From Defluviitaleaceae bacterium (GTDB lineage Bacteria; Bacillota; Clostridia; Lachnospirales; WQUN01), in contig WQVY01000004.1 in NCBI GenBank assembly GCA_009785605.1, forward strand, positions 977 through 64,976: a stretch of 64,000 bases of DNA, written 5' to 3'. Positions 2,202-19,590 of the stretch are shown in pieces. Made by a program: the position numbers and the translations under genes. A model generated the notes under the pieces. It was given only the letters and a program-made list of their open reading frames with translations. It searched no databases and had not been told where the DNA came from. Numbering within the stretch: the first letter of the stretch is position 1; each line of letters starts with the position of its first letter.

Positions 2202-2999
2202 TCACGACTGCACAGATGAAGGTGTCGCTCCTTTATACTTCTTAAACAGCCGGCTAAAGTAGAAGACATCTTTAAACCCGCATTTGAGTGCTATTTCTGT
2301 GATACTCCCATCCCCGGCACGCAGCATGTCCTCTGCTTGGTTAAGTCTTATTGTATTAAGATAATCACGGAATGTGGTACCCACCTCCTGCTTAAACAAT
2401 ATGCCTAAGTAGTTGGGGGTAAGATGCACTTCTTTTGCGGCATCTGTAATACAAACTGGCTCTGTAAAATTGTTTGTAATATAGCGTATTGTGGCTTTAA
2501 TACGTGCGTCAAACCGGGATGTATCCACTTCATATAGCAACATTTCAAAAAAACGCTGCAAGATAAGCATAAAATAGGCGCGTACCCGCATTGTATATCC
2601 GGGGCCGCGCCTAAGCCAGTTTTCGTTGAGTCTTTTAAACAATGAGATTATGCCTTCATGTATGCCAACAGAAGCCACCAATGGCAAAGGGATATTAACA
2701 TCGTTGTTGCCGGTCCCAAGCTCAAGCCCATACATATTAAAGTTTACCGCGAAGCACTCTAACATTTCTGCCGTATGACTAATGGCAGAGCGGCTGGATT
2801 GCTTTGGTATGCACAACAAGTCCCCAGCAGATACGGCTATTTTTTCGTCATTGATTATGTAAACAGCGTCGCCGCCTATTATATAAGTCATATCCACAAA
2901 GTCCGTAATAGAAGGCTCTATCCGCCAGCCATATGTATCTTTGCGGTAACTAAAGTAGTCTATACACGGCACTGCATTGTCAAAATCATAACTGTTCAT
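2202..2999 (-). CDS. AraC/XylS-family transcriptional regulator
   Basis: The N-terminal half is cupin-like and the C-terminal half is a double HTH (ITEIALKCGFKDVFYFSRLFKKYKGATPS). It is divergent from the GH67 gene. Confidence 0.85.
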   Translation of the reverse strand: MNSYDFDNAVPCIDYFSYRKDTYGWRIEPSITDFVDMTYIIGGDAVYIINDEKIAVSAGDLLCIPKQSSRSAISHTAEMLECFAVNFNMYGLELGTGNNDVNIPLPLVASVGIHEGIISLFKRLNENWLRRGPGYTMRVRAYFMLILQRFFEMLLYEVDTSRFDARIKATIRYITNNFTEPVCITDAAKEVHLTPNYLGILFKQEVGTTFRDYLNTIRLNQAEDMLRAGDGSITEIALKCGFKDVFYFSRLFKKYKGATPSSVQS

Positions 3000-3201
3000 A
3001 TGCTCTCCCTAGAAAACACAAAGTTTCCTTACTATATCTATGTCTGTTTCAACCTGTCAAGGCTATAGTAATACCAATAAGATTTTATGTGAAATTGGTA
3101 CATGGAAATATGAAAAACATGGAGGAAGTGTGAAACATCCGCGAAGCGGATTTTCATACCAACCTATTTGTTCCGCCAACGAAGGAGGCATGAATTAAGT
3201 A

Positions 3202-11421: not shown

Positions 11422-12636
11422 TCATTTCTTAGAAGGACGCACATAGCGAAGCCGCTTTTTTTCTTTTAAAGCTGCTGCACTTTTTTTGTATGCAGAGCGC
11501 GCTGCTTGCTTGTCGTATGCATTAACAATCTTTTGTACCAATGGATGCCGCACAACATCCTTGCTTGATAGGTAGCTTATACCAATATCCGGGATGCCGT
11601 CCAACAGTTGTACCGCCTCTTTTAAACCAGAATCCTTGTCATCTGGTAAATCTATTTGGGTAATATCACCGGTTATTACAGCTTTGGAATTAAAACCCAG
11701 TCGTGTGAGGAACATCTTCATCTGTTGTGGTGTGGTGTTTTGCGCCTCATCTAGCACAATAAATGAGTTGTCCAACGTACGGCCACGCATATAGGCCAAA
11801 GGTGCTACCTCAATCAAGTTACGTTCGAAATTACGGTTAAATGCCTCCGGGCCCATAATGTCATGCAAAGCATCATATAGCGGCCGAAGGTATGGGTCAA
11901 CCTTTTGTTGCAAGTCACCCGGAAGAAAGCCAAGCTTCTCCCCAGCTTCTATGGCAGGGCGTGTAAGGATTATACGGTTTACTTGGCCCGAGCGGAACGC
12001 AGTTATTGCCATAGCCATAGCCAAGTATGTCTTGCCAGTACCCGCCGGGCCAATAGCAAATGTTATTGTATTTTGGCGGATAAGGTCAATATATTTTTTT
12101 TGACCTACAGTCTTTGGCTTTAATGGGCGGCCAGATGTTGTCATACATACAGTATCATCACCAAGCTTTTCTATTTGGCCAAAGTACTCGTCTGCTAAAG
12201 AAGCTATCAAGTAATTGACTTGTTGGTCTGTTATTGATTCGCCTTTTTGGGCAAAAATCATCAATTTTTTGAGTACTGTCTCGGCCTTATCTACACCTGC
12301 GGAGGTGGTGGTGTTACTCATTATTTGCACGCCTTCGTCACGGTTAACAATTACAACATTAAAAGATTGTTCTATCTTTTTAACGTGCTCATCCAACTTG
12401 CCAAAGACATTGCTTATCAAAGCGCTGGGTATCATTATATTTTTCTTTGGTGCGTCCAAGTGTTCAGCCCCTTTGTATGATTTATGTGTCTTGGCTACTA
12501 TATCATAAAAACCGGCTCTAATGCCACTATTTGCAAAAGAAAACCCCCCGAAAGGCGATTGCCATCCGAGGGGTCTCTTGTAATATAAATTATTTGTGTC
12601 GTATAGATTTGTTATCTTGTTTATTGCCAACTCCAA
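11422..12636 (-). CDS. phoH: PhoH-family ATPase (start uncertain)
   Basis: Contains Walker A GPAGTGKTYLA and LDEAQN. The longest ORF overlaps the upstream gene by 47 nt. An internal ATG at 12435 (MIPSALISN...) would give a more typical ~337-aa PhoH, but it lacks a clear RBS. Confidence 0.85.
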   Translation of the reverse strand: MELAINKITNLYDTNNLYYKRPLGWQSPFGGFSFANSGIRAGFYDIVAKTHKSYKGAEHLDAPKKNIMIPSALISNVFGKLDEHVKKIEQSFNVVIVNRDEGVQIMSNTTTSAGVDKAETVLKKLMIFAQKGESITDQQVNYLIASLADEYFGQIEKLGDDTVCMTTSGRPLKPKTVGQKKYIDLIRQNTITFAIGPAGTGKTYLAMAMAITAFRSGQVNRIILTRPAIEAGEKLGFLPGDLQQKVDPYLRPLYDALHDIMGPEAFNRNFERNLIEVAPLAYMRGRTLDNSFIVLDEAQNTTPQQMKMFLTRLGFNSKAVITGDITQIDLPDDKDSGLKEAVQLLDGIPDIGISYLSSKDVVRHPLVQKIVNAYDKQAARSAYKKSAAALKEKKRLRYVRPSKK

Positions 12637-13336
12637 GTATAGAGGTTAATCGTGACTCACGTTTATATCGCATGGCATTCCTACGGTATTTTCCTACAGC
12701 AACGGTATGCCTCATTGTCATATTAATAATGCTAAAAGCAGTGATACCAAGCGCAGCAACAGCACCAAAAATCATAAGACTTATGGCTATTGGGTTGGTT
12801 GTGGGGTTTGGTGGGTTGGGCATACCAGCAGTTGGTGGTGTAGTTGGGGATGGCGTGGATGTAGGCGCAGGTGTTGCAGTTGCACCTGGCGGTGGAGGCG
12901 ATGGTGAAGGGGTAGGGGATGTTGATGGGGTATAAGTTGATGCCTCGCCATATGCAACCCATATTGCTTCAAGGGTCATAAAGTCAGATACCACTATATA
13001 GTCGCCATCTATGCGTACCCCATTATGACTCCAACCATCAAAGGTATGTCCTTCGCGTACAGGTGTGTATGGGAACTCAAAACGCGGCAGCGATGCCCCA
13101 GCCGCAACCCATCTTATGCCTTGGCGTGTCTCTGCTTCTGTAAACACACCGGGTGCGGGGTTAAATGATACCATTAATGCATTCTCTGTCCTTAACATTT
13201 CTTGTATTTCTGGTGACATATATCCATCATCATATGCAGCCAATGTGACGGGGTTAAGACATATTGCCACAACCAAGGCTGCAATTATTAGTATTGTTTT
13301 TATTTTATTAGAACAAGTCTCAGTTGAGATGCGCAT
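12590..13336 (-). CDS. secreted, membrane-anchored protein with one Listeria-Bacteroides (Flg_new) repeat and a Pro/Thr-rich stalk
   Basis: A GGGGGA RBS lies 7-8 nt upstream. The signal peptide ends at TLAA. The repeat reads ...REGHTFDGWSHNGVRIDGDY.... A PT-rich linker follows, then PPTAG / NPTTN, a TM helix and a long basic tail. Confidence 0.6.
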   Translation of the reverse strand: MRISTETCSNKIKTILIIAALVVAICLNPVTLAAYDDGYMSPEIQEMLRTENALMVSFNPAPGVFTEAETRQGIRWVAAGASLPRFEFPYTPVREGHTFDGWSHNGVRIDGDYIVVSDFMTLEAIWVAYGEASTYTPSTSPTPSPSPPPPGATATPAPTSTPSPTTPPTAGMPNPPNPTTNPIAISLMIFGAVAALGITAFSIINMTMRHTVAVGKYRRNAMRYKRESRLTSILGVGNKQDNKSIRHK

Positions 13337-13435
13337 TACGCCTGTCCCCCTATTTGGAATGTAAAATGATTATATACAAAAGTCGGTCATATGTCGTTAC
13401 GGATGATTTACAGGTTTTTTACAAATATATGTCGT

Positions 13436-15289
13436 TTAATAGTGGTTGGCCCTTGTTGCCACAATTGTGTACCGCTGCGAGCTGCTTTGATTGTAGCCTA
13501 GCAAGGTTAATATATCTTGCCCAGGTTGTATAGTTAGTGCATCGGTATTTATTGTGCTGCCCTGATAAATATTAACAACTGTATATATGACGGTTTTATG
13601 GAAATTTGTGATATGAATCTCATCGCCAACACTAACATTGTTTATATTTTCAAGCAAACTTGTACGCCTTTGCCCTTCGCGACCTGCAATTATTGTATTT
13701 GTATTGGCTCCGCCTAAAGGCAATGAGGTGCCGGTTACATGAGCCAAGCCGCGGCTTAAATTACCATTGTTTGCACCCATATATAGGGGTAGCTCAGCAT
13801 CTATGCTTGGGATAGTAACAAAACCAATCATCTCACTATATTCGAAGCCAAAGTGATTTAAGTTTACATTGGGCTGGTTAGCATCAAATGGGTCCGGCAA
13901 ATTACCCATACCCGACTCATATAGACGATGGTTGTATTCCGCCATCCTGTCGTATAGCCATGACAGTGGGCTTTCAAATGTGCCTTCGCCCGGTGCTGCG
14001 AGCTCACCACTTTCCATCCATCGTCCTATTTGTTCGGCGACCCACCGGTCTCTATATTCGGTTTTATAGTCATCTATCATAGTTACAAAATTATATATTG
14101 CTACCTGGCTACTGCTGCCCGGGCGGCTAAAATTTTGTGACACCCCAATACCAATAATTATGATTAGCATCAACGATATAAAGCCAGTAGCGATATATCT
14201 TGACATGCTTGGTATAGGTGAAAATCCCTTTCTTTTGCTACGAGCATTTTTACCTATTAGTGCCGGTTTTAAGGGTTTTATGGTTTGCGCTATTTTGTTG
14301 TCATTGACTCTTGCTGGCTGTGTATGGACTTCATAACTTGGGGGTGAGGTTTGACTTTCTAGGTCATTAAACATGTCGTCGATAGTTAACCCATTGTACC
14401 TATCATGGGTTACTATTGCAGCTACTGGGGTAGGATGGACCGTCCTGGGACGCCTTGCGTTAGTAGCTTCTTTTTTACCTTTTAAAGCGCTATACACAGC
14501 AAAGACGACCATAAATAACAGGAACAAGCCTACAAATATATAAATACGGATATCGACTCTTGGCTCGATAATATTCTGTACAATTTCTGCTGCCATATAC
14601 GGTATATACTCGGTTCGTCTACCACGCACAAGCCAACGATGGGAATTAATACCATATGGCGTGCATGTCATTAGCGTTACAAAGTCTTCGCCTGGTACAA
14701 TGCGGAAATGTTCCGTTTCCCATGGCAAAATCCTAATTACGTGGTCAACTTCATATGCTTTTCTAACACCCATTACTGTTATGAAAAATTTGTCACCAAT
14801 ATGTACGTTTCCTTCTAAATCATTAAACATCCTGGCGTTGGCAAGCCCTGTATGGGCCGTAAGGACAGAGTGAGTGCTTTCGCCACCAATAGGGAAAGCC
14901 GTACCCTCCATATGTCCAACACCTCTATCAAGTGCATTGTGACCGGTAGAATGGTAAATGGGCATATTAACGCCTATAATTGGTATCTCGATACGGCCCA
15001 TTACCCCGCCTACATATAAGATTTCAAAATAATCCTCTGGTAAGGGGGCTAGGTGTGCGAGTAATAATTGGGTCGTTGACCGAGCAAGTTCGTTATTTAC
15101 TTCTTCGGCACGGCGAAATTGGTTTGCGATATGCTCCTGGCTTAGCCTGGCAACTTCTTCGTCATAAATTAAAGCAATACCCCGCTGGATACGGCTATTC
15201 CACCAACTAGCAACATCTGGATAAAATAACAACGACAAGCCAAAAATCAACATTATTGCAACAAAAATTGTAGGTAAATGCCTTCTCAC
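13436..15289 (-). CDS. class C sortase fused to a second, degenerate (His->Arg, Cys->Tyr) sortase module
   Basis: GTG start with a GGGGG RBS. Module 1 has an N-terminal TM, VLTAHTG, TLMTCTPYGINSHR and a C-terminal TM. A basic linker and third TM follow. Module 2 has PDPFD, GGANTNTIIAGREG and DILTLLGYNQSSSQR. Confidence 0.8.
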   Translation of the reverse strand: MRRHLPTIFVAIMLIFGLSLLFYPDVASWWNSRIQRGIALIYDEEVARLSQEHIANQFRRAEEVNNELARSTTQLLLAHLAPLPEDYFEILYVGGVMGRIEIPIIGVNMPIYHSTGHNALDRGVGHMEGTAFPIGGESTHSVLTAHTGLANARMFNDLEGNVHIGDKFFITVMGVRKAYEVDHVIRILPWETEHFRIVPGEDFVTLMTCTPYGINSHRWLVRGRRTEYIPYMAAEIVQNIIEPRVDIRIYIFVGLFLLFMVVFAVYSALKGKKEATNARRPRTVHPTPVAAIVTHDRYNGLTIDDMFNDLESQTSPPSYEVHTQPARVNDNKIAQTIKPLKPALIGKNARSKRKGFSPIPSMSRYIATGFISLMLIIIIGIGVSQNFSRPGSSSQVAIYNFVTMIDDYKTEYRDRWVAEQIGRWMESGELAAPGEGTFESPLSWLYDRMAEYNHRLYESGMGNLPDPFDANQPNVNLNHFGFEYSEMIGFVTIPSIDAELPLYMGANNGNLSRGLAHVTGTSLPLGGANTNTIIAGREGQRRTSLLENINNVSVGDEIHITNFHKTVIYTVVNIYQGSTINTDALTIQPGQDILTLLGYNQSSSQRYTIVATRANHY

Positions 15290-15429
15290 ACCGCACCCCC
15301 TTCCGGTAACGACTTAACAAAATATTGGTACTGATAACTATACAAACCTCAATATGTAGATGTGACTCATAGAATCTATACCTATTAAGCTTTATTTGCA
15401 ATAGAAATTCGTTACATAGTTATTAAATT

Positions 15430-16266
15430 TTAGGTAGCATGCTCAATGATTGGCGGATTACGTCTTTCGCGCCATATAAAAAAATGAACGACAAGAAATG
15501 CTGCAAACACAACAACGCGCCCCCGAAACCCTGTGGATATAGGCATAACTGTAACTTCATCTTGCATGTAGTATGCATATGGGACCCTAACGCCACGTAC
15601 AAGCAGCCTATGTGTATTTATCGTGATTGGCGTACATGTAATTAGTGTCATTAAATCCTTACCAGGGGTTACACGTAGAAGTTCTATCTCATGGGGTAAG
15701 ACAGTATATATCTGGTCGACTTTATATGCCAGCCGTTGACCTAAAACAGATACAAAAAAGATATCACCATAATTAAGTAAGTGTAAATCCGTAAACAATC
15801 GTACACCTGCAAGCCCAGAATGAGTGGTCAATACAGAGTGCGTACCGTATCCGCCTATTGGAAATGCCGTACCTTCTAGGTGGCCAACACCCCTACTAAG
15901 GATATTGGGTCCTGTCCCGTGAAGTACTGGAAGGCTTACATCTATTGTGGGTATATCTATCCAAGCCATTACACCTTGTACATATAGGGTCTGATTATAG
16001 TCGTATGGAAGTATGGCTATATCCCCAAGCAACAACGGCTCAGACGATTCTAAGCTGCTTAACTGTGTGTTGTGTGTAGCCGCACGGTGTAGCTGCTGTT
16101 TGACTTGTTCTGGTGTAAGCAGTGATACCATCCTATCATATTCGCGAAGGATGGCATCATGAACCAATGTTTTTTGTAAATTGCTGATATCCGGGTAAAA
16201 CAACAATGTAAACCCGGATATCATAAAAATAAATGCAAATATTGTTAAGATGTGTTTTTTTCGCAT
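15430..16266 (-). CDS. class C sortase
   Basis: Has an N-terminal TM and FYPD. Catalytic motifs are VLTTHSG, TLITCTPITINTHRLLVRG and a C-terminal TM. Its start codon overlaps the stop of the upstream oxidoreductase (TAATG). Confidence 0.9.
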   Translation of the reverse strand: MRKKHILTIFAFIFMISGFTLLFYPDISNLQKTLVHDAILREYDRMVSLLTPEQVKQQLHRAATHNTQLSSLESSEPLLLGDIAILPYDYNQTLYVQGVMAWIDIPTIDVSLPVLHGTGPNILSRGVGHLEGTAFPIGGYGTHSVLTTHSGLAGVRLFTDLHLLNYGDIFFVSVLGQRLAYKVDQIYTVLPHEIELLRVTPGKDLMTLITCTPITINTHRLLVRGVRVPYAYYMQDEVTVMPISTGFRGRVVVFAAFLVVHFFIWRERRNPPIIEHAT

Positions 16267-17372
16267 TAATCTAGAATCCCTGGTAATAGGCCTGTTTTCA
16301 TGGGTGCTGGCCTATCTGGTGCAGACAATATTGGTACCTGTTTGCCACTTTCTGCACTCACTGAAAAGCCTGTCATGACTTCAAGCACATGATGTGTAAT
16401 ATCCACACCAGCGCGGGCTTTGCGCCCGGTTTGGATGGCTTTTGCCATGTCTGCAAGGCCTAACCCACGGCTGTTGTCTGCATAGCCAAAGGTTAGTGGT
16501 ATCTCCATGTATGTTTTGCTTTCTGGGCGATATAGCATTACTGGGCCGCCAAATGTGTTGGGGTCTGGTACAGACAATGTGCCCTCGGTACCATATACCT
16601 CTAATATAGGCAGTTTGTGAGCATGGACATCAAAAGACTGGATTATCGTACCTATTGCACCACTTGCAAATTCCATTTGGCCGGCTATATGAGTGGAAAC
16701 TTCTACATCTACAATGGTGCCGTAATGGGGTTGGCTTGTGATGCGACGTGTAGGATATGATTTTTTTGCCATACCGTTTACGGCTTTAACGGCGCCTATA
16801 AGGTTTACCAGTGCTGTTATATAGTATGGACCCATGTCCATCATGGGGCCGCCGCCAAACTGGTAATAAAATGCCGGGTCCGGATGCCAAGACTCGTGGC
16901 CCCTACATGCAAAAAAGGCTGTTGCGGCTACAGGCTTACCTATATATCCGTCATCTATAAGCTTACGACATGTTTGGATACCAGCCCCAAGGAAGGTGTC
17001 TGGTGCACCGCCTACCATTACACCTTTGGCTTTGGCCGCGTCTCGTATTTTTGTACCTTCTTCGAGTGTGGCACCTAGGGGTTTTTCCGAATATACGTGT
17101 TTACCTGCATTAATTGCTGCCATGCTTACATCGTAATGTTCGTATGGGCGGGTGATGTTAAGCACTATGTCTATGGTTGGGTCACCAAACATCTCGTGCA
17201 TGTCTTTGTATTTGCGTGGTATGTTGTATGTGGACACTGCTTTTTCGGCTTTACTGTCCACCAAGTCGCAGACCCCTGCAATTTCTAGCTCCTTAAACAG
17301 GTTGGTTAAGTTTGTTAAGTAGATGCCACTGATATCCCCGCATCCAACTATACCTATACGTGTTTTTTGCAT
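16266..17372 (-). CDS. Gfo/Idh/MocA-family NAD(P)-dependent oxidoreductase
   Basis: The N-terminal Rossmann motif is RIGIVGCGDISG, with an EKP motif (YSEKPLG). Confidence 0.85.
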   Translation of the reverse strand: MQKTRIGIVGCGDISGIYLTNLTNLFKELEIAGVCDLVDSKAEKAVSTYNIPRKYKDMHEMFGDPTIDIVLNITRPYEHYDVSMAAINAGKHVYSEKPLGATLEEGTKIRDAAKAKGVMVGGAPDTFLGAGIQTCRKLIDDGYIGKPVAATAFFACRGHESWHPDPAFYYQFGGGPMMDMGPYYITALVNLIGAVKAVNGMAKKSYPTRRITSQPHYGTIVDVEVSTHIAGQMEFASGAIGTIIQSFDVHAHKLPILEVYGTEGTLSVPDPNTFGGPVMLYRPESKTYMEIPLTFGYADNSRGLGLADMAKAIQTGRKARAGVDITHHVLEVMTGFSVSAESGKQVPILSAPDRPAPMKTGLLPGILD

Positions 17373-17541
17373 TTACCTCATGCCTCCTTCGTTGGCTTAA
17401 CAAGTATGCTACCTATTGTATATTATTGTATCTTACTTAACATTGCAATAACAATCTTGTGATACGCGCACAAAGCGTCTTTCTTGTGGTATACTGCAAA
17501 TATTCGCAGAAATAAGGCAAAATTGTAATCGTACAAAAGAG

Positions 17542-19590
17542 GTGAGCTTTGCGGTGAGAGATTGGCTATCCCGGTCAGCACTGCGGGTTGAAAATGTAGG
17601 TATTATTAAGGCCATAAAAGATGGGTTTGCTGGTATTATGCCGGTGCTACTCATAGGGGCTTTTATTTTTATGCTTGTAGAGCTGGAGATCCCGTTATAC
17701 TTGGATGCCATGCGCGTCCCTGGTATATACTGGCATATCACTTTCGAGCAGATATATCGCGGGGCCCTTGGTATTATTCCTATGGCTGTTGTTATTTCTG
17801 TAAGTTATACGCTGGCGCTTCATTCGCCGCATTATTCTAGTAGGGTGCTTAGCCCGTTGGTTCCTTCTCTTGTTGGGTTTTCGTGTCTGTTATTGCTTAC
17901 CGCTGTACCGGGTTTTGGTGCACGGTTTGTGGACATAGGGCCAGGTGGGGTCTTTCTTGCGGTGGTTGTGGCTGTTGTGTCACATCTACTTTTCTTTTTT
18001 TTCTATAGGTTTCGTCTTATTGTTGTTAGGCCCAAGGCCGCTACAGCATATCTTGCACAGGTTGTATTGCTTCTTGAGCCTGTACTTTTTACTATCTTAG
18101 TCTTTGGCGTATTGCGGTACGCTTTTAATGTCTTTGGTATATACAATATCCCCAATCATATCACTGAGCGCGTTATTAATATGCTTGCCGGGATTTACAA
18201 CGGTATAAACAGCCCTGTGCTATTTGTAATGATATTTACATTTATGTACCAGTTATTATGGTTCTTTGGACTGCACAATGGCGAAATTGTCCCTAGTGTG
18301 GCAGAGCATGTTGATTGGTCTTATGTGCTGTGCCCGGATTTTTTTCAATTTTTTGTATTGGCAGGCGGAGGTGGGGCTCTTGCGCTTATTGTGGCTATAC
18401 TAATTGTGCGGAGTAAAAGCGCTTCGCGTCCGGCTCTTTTTTCTTTGCCTATGGGCCTTGCTAATATTGGTACGCCTGTACTTTATGGTTTACCGGTCTT
18501 GTTTAATCCTATCCTTATTATCCCCTTTATATTTGCGCCTATGGTATCGGGTATGGTTGCTCGCATTGCGGTTTCTGCAGGTATGAATGCAACCGTTATT
18601 GCCGGGGTTTCTTCTACATTGCCGCCGGGTATAAGCGGGTGGATGGCGACCGGCTCTTTAATGGCGGGTTTTATACAGGTATTGACTTTGGCCATTAGCG
18701 TCCTTATCTACTTACCCTTTGTGTGGATAGCCAATAACACCAGCGAAGAACGAAGTGACTTTGCAATAGAGGAACTTATGTCACGGGATGCTGCACCTTA
18801 CCTTGCACGTAAAGATGATGTTGGAGTCTTTGCCCGTTCTCTTTTCGAAGAAATGGAGTATGACCTAAGGCGTGGGCGAGGTTTTTATTTAGAATATCAA
18901 CCAATGATTGACAGCCACAACCGAATGGTTAGCTTTGAGGCAAGAGTGCGCTATAGGCATGCATCTTTGGGGCCACTACCACCACAACTGGTACATGCCC
19001 TTGCCGAAGAAGGCCGACTTTTGGGAAATATAAATATTTTTGTGATGGAAGATGCCCTAGCTACCCTTCACAGTTTAAGAGAAAACGGCTTTACGGATTT
19101 ATTAATGACAATTAACCTTTCACCCAAAGAGCTAAGCAAGCCAAAAACAATAAAAATTATAAAGGATATGCTGGCGAAATATAACATAGATCCAACATAT
19201 GTAAGAATCATATTGTCGAGCCATGAAGTGCTGGACCCGGGCTTTGACCCATGGACGCTCATGAGTGCCTTAAGTGCTATTGGGTTAAGGGTAATTATTA
19301 ATAATTTTAGCTTACAACTAACACATTTTAGCAACCTGCAACGGATGGGCATAAAAGCTATCAAGTTAAGCAGCGCACTTACCCATGAAGTACAGTTTAA
19401 CGAGCTTAGCGCCAATGTAATAAAAGACATTGTAGAGCATGCAAAGCCCATGACCATTAGCGCCGAAGATATAGAATCTAAAGCGCAATATGACTTGTTG
19501 GTGGAACTAGGCTGTGAAATATTCCAAGGCAAATATTTTTCCAAACCAATGGAAACGGCAGATTTGTCGCTATATCTAAGGTTGAAATAA
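17542..19590 (+). CDS. PTS EIIC-like (lactose/cellobiose family) membrane domain fused to a degenerate EAL domain
   Basis: The N-terminal IKAIKDGFAGIMPVLLIGAF plus about 10 TM segments resemble EIIC. The C-terminal ~250 aa carries EAL landmarks: EYQP, FEARVR, NLS, AEDIES and FQGKYFSKP. The DDFG and KID positions read NNFS and KLS. Confidence 0.75.
   Translation: MSFAVRDWLSRSALRVENVGIIKAIKDGFAGIMPVLLIGAFIFMLVELEIPLYLDAMRVPGIYWHITFEQIYRGALGIIPMAVVISVSYTLALHSPHYSSRVLSPLVPSLVGFSCLLLLTAVPGFGARFVDIGPGGVFLAVVVAVVSHLLFFFFYRFRLIVVRPKAATAYLAQVVLLLEPVLFTILVFGVLRYAFNVFGIYNIPNHITERVINMLAGIYNGINSPVLFVMIFTFMYQLLWFFGLHNGEIVPSVAEHVDWSYVLCPDFFQFFVLAGGGGALALIVAILIVRSKSASRPALFSLPMGLANIGTPVLYGLPVLFNPILIIPFIFAPMVSGMVARIAVSAGMNATVIAGVSSTLPPGISGWMATGSLMAGFIQVLTLAISVLIYLPFVWIANNTSEERSDFAIEELMSRDAAPYLARKDDVGVFARSLFEEMEYDLRRGRGFYLEYQPMIDSHNRMVSFEARVRYRHASLGPLPPQLVHALAEEGRLLGNINIFVMEDALATLHSLRENGFTDLLMTINLSPKELSKPKTIKIIKDMLAKYNIDPTYVRIILSSHEVLDPGFDPWTLMSALSAIGLRVIINNFSLQLTHFSNLQRMGIKAIKLSSALTHEVQFNELSANVIKDIVEHAKPMTISAEDIESKAQYDLLVELGCEIFQGKYFSKPMETADLSLYLRLK

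Follow-up and report, generated by a model that had tools for sequence, protein, structure and literature searches.

What might a sortase fold still do for a cell after its catalytic residues are lost? Sortases have been uniformly described as His-Cys-Arg enzymes (PMC8225981), and the question is raised by a 64,000-nucleotide stretch of a Defluviitaleaceae genome (GenBank assembly GCA_009785605.1, contig WQVY01000004.1, positions 977 to 64,976 of the forward strand), hereafter the window. A single open reading frame (ORF) in it codes for a protein of 617 amino acids (aa) in which an active class C sortase domain (module 1) is joined to a complete second sortase module with neither the catalytic His nor the catalytic Cys (module 2). 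Here we document the architecture of this fusion, the loss of the catalytic residues, its conservation under purifying selection and its linkage to neighboring genes. Judged from sequence and predicted structure, module 2 is a pseudoenzyme: the nucleophilic Cys is gone and the His is dispensable, while the barrel and a DPF lid motif are kept, as is the Arg in most members. The fusion belongs to a family that had not been described before, for which we use the name pseudo-sortase. As to its role, we lean, on comparative evidence, towards module 2 being a non-catalytic binding or gating partner in the processing of a small secreted protein encoded next to it.

An active sortase and a Cys-less sortase fold in one membrane protein

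The ORF begins with a GTG codon, 5' of which lies the ribosome-binding site GGAAGGGGG, and ends with TAA; all codons and residues assigned to it in an earlier reading of the window, made from the letters alone (the sequence-only reading), are exact on the DNA (Table 1). The two sortase domains claimed in that reading were recovered as two stretches matching PF04203. The first of these, in module 1, spans aa 100-225, and the NCBIfam model NF033745 (class_C_sortase) matches the whole protein with 332.8 bits against a cut-off of 160, its best stretch being aa 11-225. H146, C209 and R218 of module 1 line up with the triad of the neighboring class C sortase (SrtC) and of 154 other domains, and C209 is the only Cys in the fusion, with none in aa 210-617. 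Module 2 taken alone (the C-terminal 254 aa) scores 50.3 bits with PF04203 (cut-off 26.6) and 112.2 bits with NF033745, which is under the 160-bit cut-off of that model. Its sortase fold, proposed in the sequence-only reading, was borne out by structure superposition: the AlphaFold2 (AF2) model of module 2 alone is confident, with a predicted local distance difference test score (pLDDT) of 89 and a predicted template modeling score (pTM) of 0.81, and Foldseek aligns it to class C sortase crystal structures with an E-value of 4e-18 and target TM-scores of 0.76-0.83. The sequence matches in the PDB are also of class C, and in 3o0p the DPF motif has its counterpart in a DPY lid.

An alignment of both modules with the neighboring SrtC places R537 at the His site and Y599 at the Cys site of module 2, in agreement with the DNA codons and with the replacements first reported for this protein, and confirms that module 2 keeps R606 together with its own transmembrane (TM) anchor and the DPF lid. 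The near residue-for-residue correspondence that had been ascribed to the two modules was, however, not recovered, their identity being merely 25%. A further statement, that module 1 has every class C hallmark, stands for the triad and both TM segments but not for the lid: DP[FWY] is absent from module 1 in 21 of 21 full-length orthologues, and a segment of the P-L-L-x-A-H type (QLLLAH in this protein) is found where the lid would be expected. DP[FWY] is likewise missing from the upstream stand-alone SrtC in all five cases examined and is present as DPF in the sister fusions of two active sortases. An asymmetry of the lid accordingly runs through these loci, in that both active domains (14585-15034 and 15430-16266; orthologues L007-L044) are devoid of DP[FWY], with a P-L-L-x-A-H type segment in its place, and the dead module has DPF.

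Hydropathy, with which the AF2 model is concordant, delineates three hydrophobic segments in the fusion (aa 3-28, 244-271 and 363-388). The linker of 92 aa between the second and third of these is basic (15 Lys and Arg vs 8 Asp and Glu), and aa 284-360 have a pLDDT below 50 in the full-length model. By the positive-inside rule the linker would be cytoplasmic and both sortase folds would lie outside the cell. The fusion is a real and conserved three-pass membrane protein, with this orientation as its predicted topology.

The Cys-less module is conserved and constrained

As a word-index search with module 2 alone gave one homologue, the set of homologues was assembled by an exhaustive profile search with the same module. 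This recovered seven proteins of 630-681 aa (P0001-P0007) with the same fusion, module 1 having His, Cys and Arg and module 2 being Cys-less in all seven. When metagenomes were searched with the motif of the small protein encoded next to the fusion, 28 loci were obtained, and the fusion or a fragment of it lies directly upstream in 21 of the 21 that have enough upstream sequence. The seven proteins and about 19 more found via the neighboring gene make up about 26 distinct orthologues, drawn from higher-termite gut metagenomes; they share the join, and all have the triad in module 1. Among the samples of these relatives are Emb289P1 (IMG 3300009826) and Lab288P1 (IMG 3300010162), which represent compartment P1 of the gut in Embiratermes neotenicus and Labiotermes labralis. 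P1 is strongly alkaline and is the main reported source of metagenome-assembled genomes (MAGs) of Defluviitaleaceae.

Across 26 distinct fusions the Cys site of module 2 is occupied by Tyr in 24, by Asn in one and by Pro in one, and by Cys in none; the His site retains His in 14, has Tyr in 11 and has Arg solely in the protein of the window. The sequence-only reading, which had asked whether the replacement of His by Arg and of Cys by Tyr is conserved, is thus upheld for the Cys, the loss of which is universal, but not for the Arg, the relatives having His or Tyr instead. The Arg of the former triad is kept in module 2 of 21 of the 26. The DPF lid, a G-x-A-H-x-T-x-S-x-P motif and this Arg are invariant in 13 aligned Cys-less homologues, fused and stand-alone, and nearly so in the 26 fusions. 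In one subclade (L039, L040 and L043) the lid Asp is replaced by Asn (SNPF) together with loss of the Arg (PEHW or PELW), which could represent the coupled loss of a salt bridge between lid and Arg and is probably a single evolutionary event.

We then compared the rates of evolution of the different regions of the fusion. As the deep orthologue set is saturated at synonymous sites (proportion of synonymous differences, pS, about 0.75), the ratio of the nonsynonymous (dN) to the synonymous rate (dS) is unusable there, and a finer estimate was made from five syntenic orthologues with a Gfo/Idh/MocA gene as the rate control. The control has an aa identity of 88% and a dN of 0.07. The cores of modules 1 and 2 have identities of 0.73 and 0.66 with dN of 0.20 and 0.23, respectively, the N-terminal helices of module 2 have a dN of 0.28, and the linker has an identity of 0.28 with a dN of 0.82 (0.18-0.28 and 0.82-1.34 over both orthologue sets). 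The deep set ranks the regions in the same way, with the module 2 core far better conserved than the linker. On these substitution rates, constraint on the dead module is about equal to that on the live one, in line with the purifying selection that had been suspected for it. The region 12590-16266 is at the same time a fast-evolving island, its genes being 49-71% identical in syntenic relatives as against 82-92% in the flanks (11422-12636 and 16266-19590); by tblastn, the flanking genes for a phosphotransferase system (PTS)-EAL protein, the Gfo/Idh/MocA protein and a PhoH-like protein are 82-86%, 88-90% and 88-92% identical, respectively.

A three-gene cassette with a small secreted protein

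The gene neighborhood of the fusion is a cassette of conserved order, found in varied genomic contexts, in which a stand-alone active SrtC gene is followed by the fusion and then by a gene for a secreted protein of 225-248 aa; this last gene is 3' of the fusion in 8 of 8 loci first examined. In the small protein, a signal peptide precedes a weak Flg_new-like domain and a Pro/Thr-rich stalk, after which come a motif, a TM segment and a basic tail of 35-45 aa. The motif is invariant as P-N-P-x-T-(N/S)-P-(I/L)-(A/T)-I-S, the TM segment is strongly conserved, and motif, TM and tail together are the best-conserved block of the protein (82% identity, dN 0.11). A tripartite, sorting-signal-like C-terminus is hence present and conserved, although its motif is not LPXTG and its tail is itself conserved; the small protein includes the peptide PNPPNPTTNPIA. 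Its gene is the sole one of the window coding for a C-terminus of this kind, and the protein would be the candidate sortase substrate of the cassette.

A classical role of the cassette in pilus polymerization was considered and rejected, because no LPXTG/YPK pilin gene lies near it in the 64-kb window and the neighboring protein has no conserved Lys. At the 3' end of the small gene, a PhoH-like ORF with a listed TTG start at 12636 overlaps it by 47 nucleotides (12590-12636); the tblastn matches of this ORF in relatives start only at residue 34-56, so its true start is probably further downstream.

Table 1. Coordinates of the fusion, its parts, the adjoining cassette genes and stand-alone Cys-less homologues
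Feature	Description	Coordinates	Strand	Basis
Fusion ORF	617 aa; class C sortase–TM–linker (predicted cytoplasmic)–TM–pseudo-sortase; NCBI MCL2404145.1	13436..15289	(-)	
TM1	N-terminal signal anchor of module 1, aa ~6-26	15212..15274	(-)	hydropathy; AF2 helix 5-48
Module 1 core	catalytic core, aa 86-235, H146/C209/R218	14585..15034	(-)	profiles, alignment, DNA check
Module 1 catalytic codons	H146 CAT; C209 TGC; R218 CGT	14852-14854; 14663-14665; 14636-14638	(-)	
TM2	C-terminal anchor of module 1, aa 244-271	14477..14560	(-)	hydropathy + AF2
Linker	basic, disordered, fast-evolving, predicted cytoplasmic, aa 273-364	14198..14473	(-)	pLDDT, charge, dN
TM3	membrane anchor of module 2, aa 363-388	14126..14203	(-)	hydropathy + AF2
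Module 2 N-terminal helices and lid	aa 389-472; lid D466-P467-F468 at 13886-13894	13874..14125	(-)	alignment, AF2
Module 2 barrel	sortase barrel, aa 473-617, R537/Y599/R606	13439..13873	(-)	profiles, alignment, AF2
Module 2 former catalytic codons	R537 CGC (His site); Y599 TAC (Cys site); R606 CGG	13679-13681; 13493-13495; 13472-13474	(-)	
Stand-alone SrtC	active class C sortase, 278 aa, MCL2404146.1; paralogue of module 1, first cassette gene	15430..16266	(-)	profiles, synteny
Small secreted protein	248 aa, MCL2404144.1, annotated 'hypothetical'; candidate substrate or partner	12590..13336	(-)	
Parts of small protein	NPTTN motif; TM; conserved basic tail	12794-12808; 12713-12793; 12593-12712	(-)	
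Stand-alone Cys-less homologues	P0028, P0152, P0052	L014/L015:6001-6771; L019:1110-1874; L016-L018 ~2350-3130		

Probable origin from a pair of active sortase genes

The next tier of profile matches (435-795 aa) consists of SrtC-SrtC fusions with both triads intact, and two MAGs carry the pair as distinct genes, overlapping or abutting, beside LPXTG proteins. A close relative with module 2 as a separate and catalytically intact gene, which the sequence-only reading regarded as the mark of a decaying copy, was not found; in a genome-collection scan, separate active counterparts of module 2 are distant only, at 34-36% identity. An Acidimicrobiales match in that scan was unrelated and left unused. 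Neighbor-joining trees of the two modules are congruent, in both of which the pseudo-sortase fusions are sister to the active-active fusions P0015, P0017, P0021 and P0033, and the clade of fused pseudo-sortases has a bootstrap of 92%. The pairing of the dead module with an active paralogue, as it was first described, stands to the extent that module 1 carries the full triad; module 2 itself derives from a distinct second-sortase lineage and is no duplicate of module 1.

These relationships suggest that an adjacent gene pair gave rise to a fusion, followed by loss of the Cys and a change of neighbor, a history that we consider likely on the phylogenetic patterns. In pilus loci of related Clostridia, one class C sortase gene is directly followed by another, and module 2 would descend from the latter. 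The pair would have fused, many such fusions still having both sites active, and the Cys would then have been lost in a Defluviitaleaceae lineage of alkaline termite-gut compartments; at the same stage, the neighboring substrate would have switched from a classical LPXTG/YPK pilin to the small, Lys-poor PNPxT(N/S)P protein with its TM segment and tail. The P0015 active-active fusion follows a protein of 713 aa in which a YPK pilin motif and LPLTG are both present. This LPLTG protein beside P0015 (L020:205-2346) is very Pro-rich, with a pilin-like YPKPP motif, and is a candidate for the major pilin of a termite-gut pilus.

The dead fold also exists on its own. At least 20 stand-alone Cys-less proteins of about 250 aa were seen, which have the N-terminal helices, lid and Arg in common with module 2 and carry Thr, Gln, Glu, Pro or Ser at the Cys site. 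The monophyly of fused and stand-alone Cys-less proteins has a bootstrap of just 55%, so we do not propose that the Cys was lost only once. Three of the stand-alone proteins are labeled "class C sortase [Defluviitaleaceae bacterium]" at NCBI, and one of the three, P0152, shares an 84.7-kb contig with the fusion gene described here. P0028 and P0152 start 4-10 nucleotides after the stop codon of a giant LPLTG adhesin, which ties the dead fold to sortase substrates, and P0052 follows a 530-aa lipase-like membrane protein. Elsewhere on the ENA contig that bears the fusion gene (k141_1384667; L019:6117-7160, outside the window) we observed a protein of 347 aa in which an XRE-type HTH_3 domain and a membrane segment are joined to a class C-like sortase domain, the His of this domain being replaced by Tyr (VIVAYGG) and its Cys kept (TLMTCVP); from its domain composition, it may be a membrane-tethered regulator with the sortase fold as its sensor.

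What the pseudo-sortase module might do

We propose that the N-terminal anchor would put the active class C domain outside the cell and that the second helix would bring the chain back to the cytoplasm, from where, after some 90-200 aa of disordered basic linker, the third helix would put the second sortase fold outside again. Module 2, non-catalytic and held 1:1 beside module 1, would bind the sorting signal or the ectodomain of the small protein, or module 1 itself, and might thereby act on the substrate of module 1 and the upstream SrtC, recruiting, holding or gating it for cleavage and attachment by these two. On the conservation and linkage described above, we rate such a binding or gating role slightly above even; the docking, regulation or chaperoning put forward in the sequence-only reading is likewise a role that we infer.

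Several points weigh against this proposal. The full-length AF2 model has no confident placement of the two modules relative to each other (pTM 0.45). The invariant lid and Arg could signify a permanently closed groove that binds nothing, and of the 26 orthologues 5 have lost the Arg and 2 the Tyr. Instead of being cleaved as a substrate, the small protein could be a partner in the membrane, its TM segment and tail being unusually conserved and long for a sorting signal; moreover, its ectodomain has no Lys in the copy of the window and none conserved among the orthologues, so that the usual pilus-polymerizing chemistry of class C sortases is not obviously applicable. Finally, the five-orthologue estimate has a dS of about 1.6-2, which is near saturation and makes the values of omega rough.

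A broader possibility, which we advance tentatively and with some doubt, is that Cys-less sortase folds are a functional class of non-catalytic receptors for sorting signals. If this were true, the fused dead module would select the PNPxTNP-tagged protein and present it to the lid-less active module, the stand-alone dead fold would partner giant LPLTG adhesins, and the two would constitute a previously undescribed adaptor layer in Gram-positive surface display.

The strongest of the other explanations, which we deem unlikely though far from negligible, is that module 2 binds no substrate and is a structural or regulatory appendage, which might dimerize with or sterically gate module 1 or the upstream SrtC, act as a spacer in the wall, or serve as a decoy titrating sorting signals. 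The co-retention of the lid Asp, an aromatic residue and the Arg is suggestive of a closed and self-occupied groove, and the loss of DP[FWY] from the active modules of the cassette, with the lid kept in the dead one, points the same way, as does the coincidence of the lid Asp-to-Asn change with Arg loss in a single subclade. The stand-alone Cys-less relatives, however, lie near LPLTG adhesins and not always near an active sortase, which fits a substrate-directed role better.

Far less probable is that module 2 is still catalytic through another nucleophile, for instance a phenolate of Tyr599 in the alkaline P1 gut, for which a His general base would be unneeded. We know of no transpeptidase of the sortase fold with a Tyr nucleophile. 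Such chemistry could account for the presence of Tyr in 24 of 26 fusions while the His site varies among His, Tyr and Arg, for the Arg being mostly kept, and for the P1 origin of the samples. Nevertheless, two orthologues have Asn or Pro at this site, the stand-alone relatives carry any of five residues other than Tyr there, module 1 keeps its Cys in the same protein and habitat, and all characterized sortases use His-Cys-Arg (PMC8225981).

It is more improbable still that module 2 is what is left of a formerly independent sortase gene, in decay and carried neutrally after loss of a stop codon. The absence of the catalytic residues and the existence of ancestral relatives with two separate genes, overlapping or abutting, would accord with decay, but about 26 orthologues with identities of 40-60% have an uninterrupted frame, the dN of the module 2 core is close to that of the active module and about a quarter of that of the linker, the predicted fold is confident, motifs are invariant across the Cys-less homologues, and the orthologues are no single recent clone, since both their flanking contexts and their sequences differ. 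Lastly, an assembly or sequencing artefact joining two genes, for which only the general proneness of MAG contigs to error speaks, can be practically dismissed: four independent data sources contain the identical protein, namely as NCBI MCL2404145.1 ("MAG: class C sortase [Defluviitaleaceae bacterium]") and on ENA, Logan and JGI contigs, near-identical variants in a cluster look-up differ only in the start codon, and the same architecture in one continuous frame recurs on many diverged contigs from several samples, all of which speaks against the concern about the assembly raised in the sequence-only reading.

Relationship to known systems and implications

Both modules have the fold of the pilus class C sortases, such as SrtC1 of Streptococcus agalactiae (4g1j/3rbi), SrtC-1 of Streptococcus pneumoniae (2w1j), SrtC-1 of Actinomyces oris (2xwg) and SrtC of Clostridium perfringens (6ixz/7d6t), and share with them the triad and the N- and C-terminal anchors in module 1 and the DPF lid in module 2. 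They differ from these enzymes in that module 2 has no Cys (and here no His), module 1 has no DP[FWY], no pilin is near, and two folds occupy one polypeptide. Closer still are the adjacent SrtC pairs and active-active fusions of uncultured Clostridia (L004 and L005; P0008-P0026, including the P0015/17/21 type, and P0033), in which a SrtC with a C-terminal TM segment likewise precedes a member of a second lineage without one. Their fusions have the same TM-linker-TM join, and those of the P0015 type are the sister group in both module trees; in contrast to the cassette, these pairs and fusions keep His-Cys-Arg in the second module and adjoin classical LPXTG proteins or pilins. No characterization of active-active SrtC-SrtC fusions was found in the literature. 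A parallel from another fold is provided by the JAK kinases, the JH1-JH2 tandem of which joins an enzyme to a pseudoenzyme with a demonstrated regulatory role. As in JAK, a dead paralogous domain under selection stands in cis to an active one; the fold and the cellular location are unrelated, and a comparable regulatory role in the fusion would be an analogy.

The NPxT(N/S) motif of the small protein resembles the NPQTN signal of the class B sortase system SrtB-IsdC of Staphylococcus aureus (PMC8225981), whereas the domains of the cassette score as class C and no iron-uptake genes are part of it. A class B assignment was discarded, as the NCBIfam matches include no class B model and class C is best. 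The YwpE protein of Bacillus subtilis is a truncated sortase-like protein of doubtful catalytic competence (PMC8225981); unlike that protein, which is short and has no known conserved family context, the pseudo-sortase is a complete fold conserved across many species. A full-text literature search turned up no description of a pseudo-sortase, a non-catalytic sortase or a natural sortase-sortase fusion, and the impression conveyed in the sequence-only reading, that no sortase/pseudo-sortase fusion has been characterized, agrees with this result.

The conserved Cys-less branch flags a systematic annotation error, in that the fusion and its stand-alone relatives are all labeled "class C sortase". 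It also offers a natural system for studying substrate recognition and hand-over in sortases, with binding here split from chemistry, and adds to the abundant uncultured Firmicutes of termite guts a surface-display cassette in which two sortase domains devoid of the lid are combined with a third that is dead but lidded and with a small protein that has an NPxTN-type signal. The hypotheses advanced above are directly testable with small constructs and standard soluble-domain assays.

Beyond the cassette, the window codes on the plus strand (17542-19590) for a protein of 682 aa in which a PTS EIIC membrane domain is followed by an EAL domain (cyclic di-GMP phosphodiesterase) at the C-terminus. 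It is 82-86% identical in the syntenic relatives L021, L022 and L025 and is an unusual fusion of a transporter with a signaling domain.

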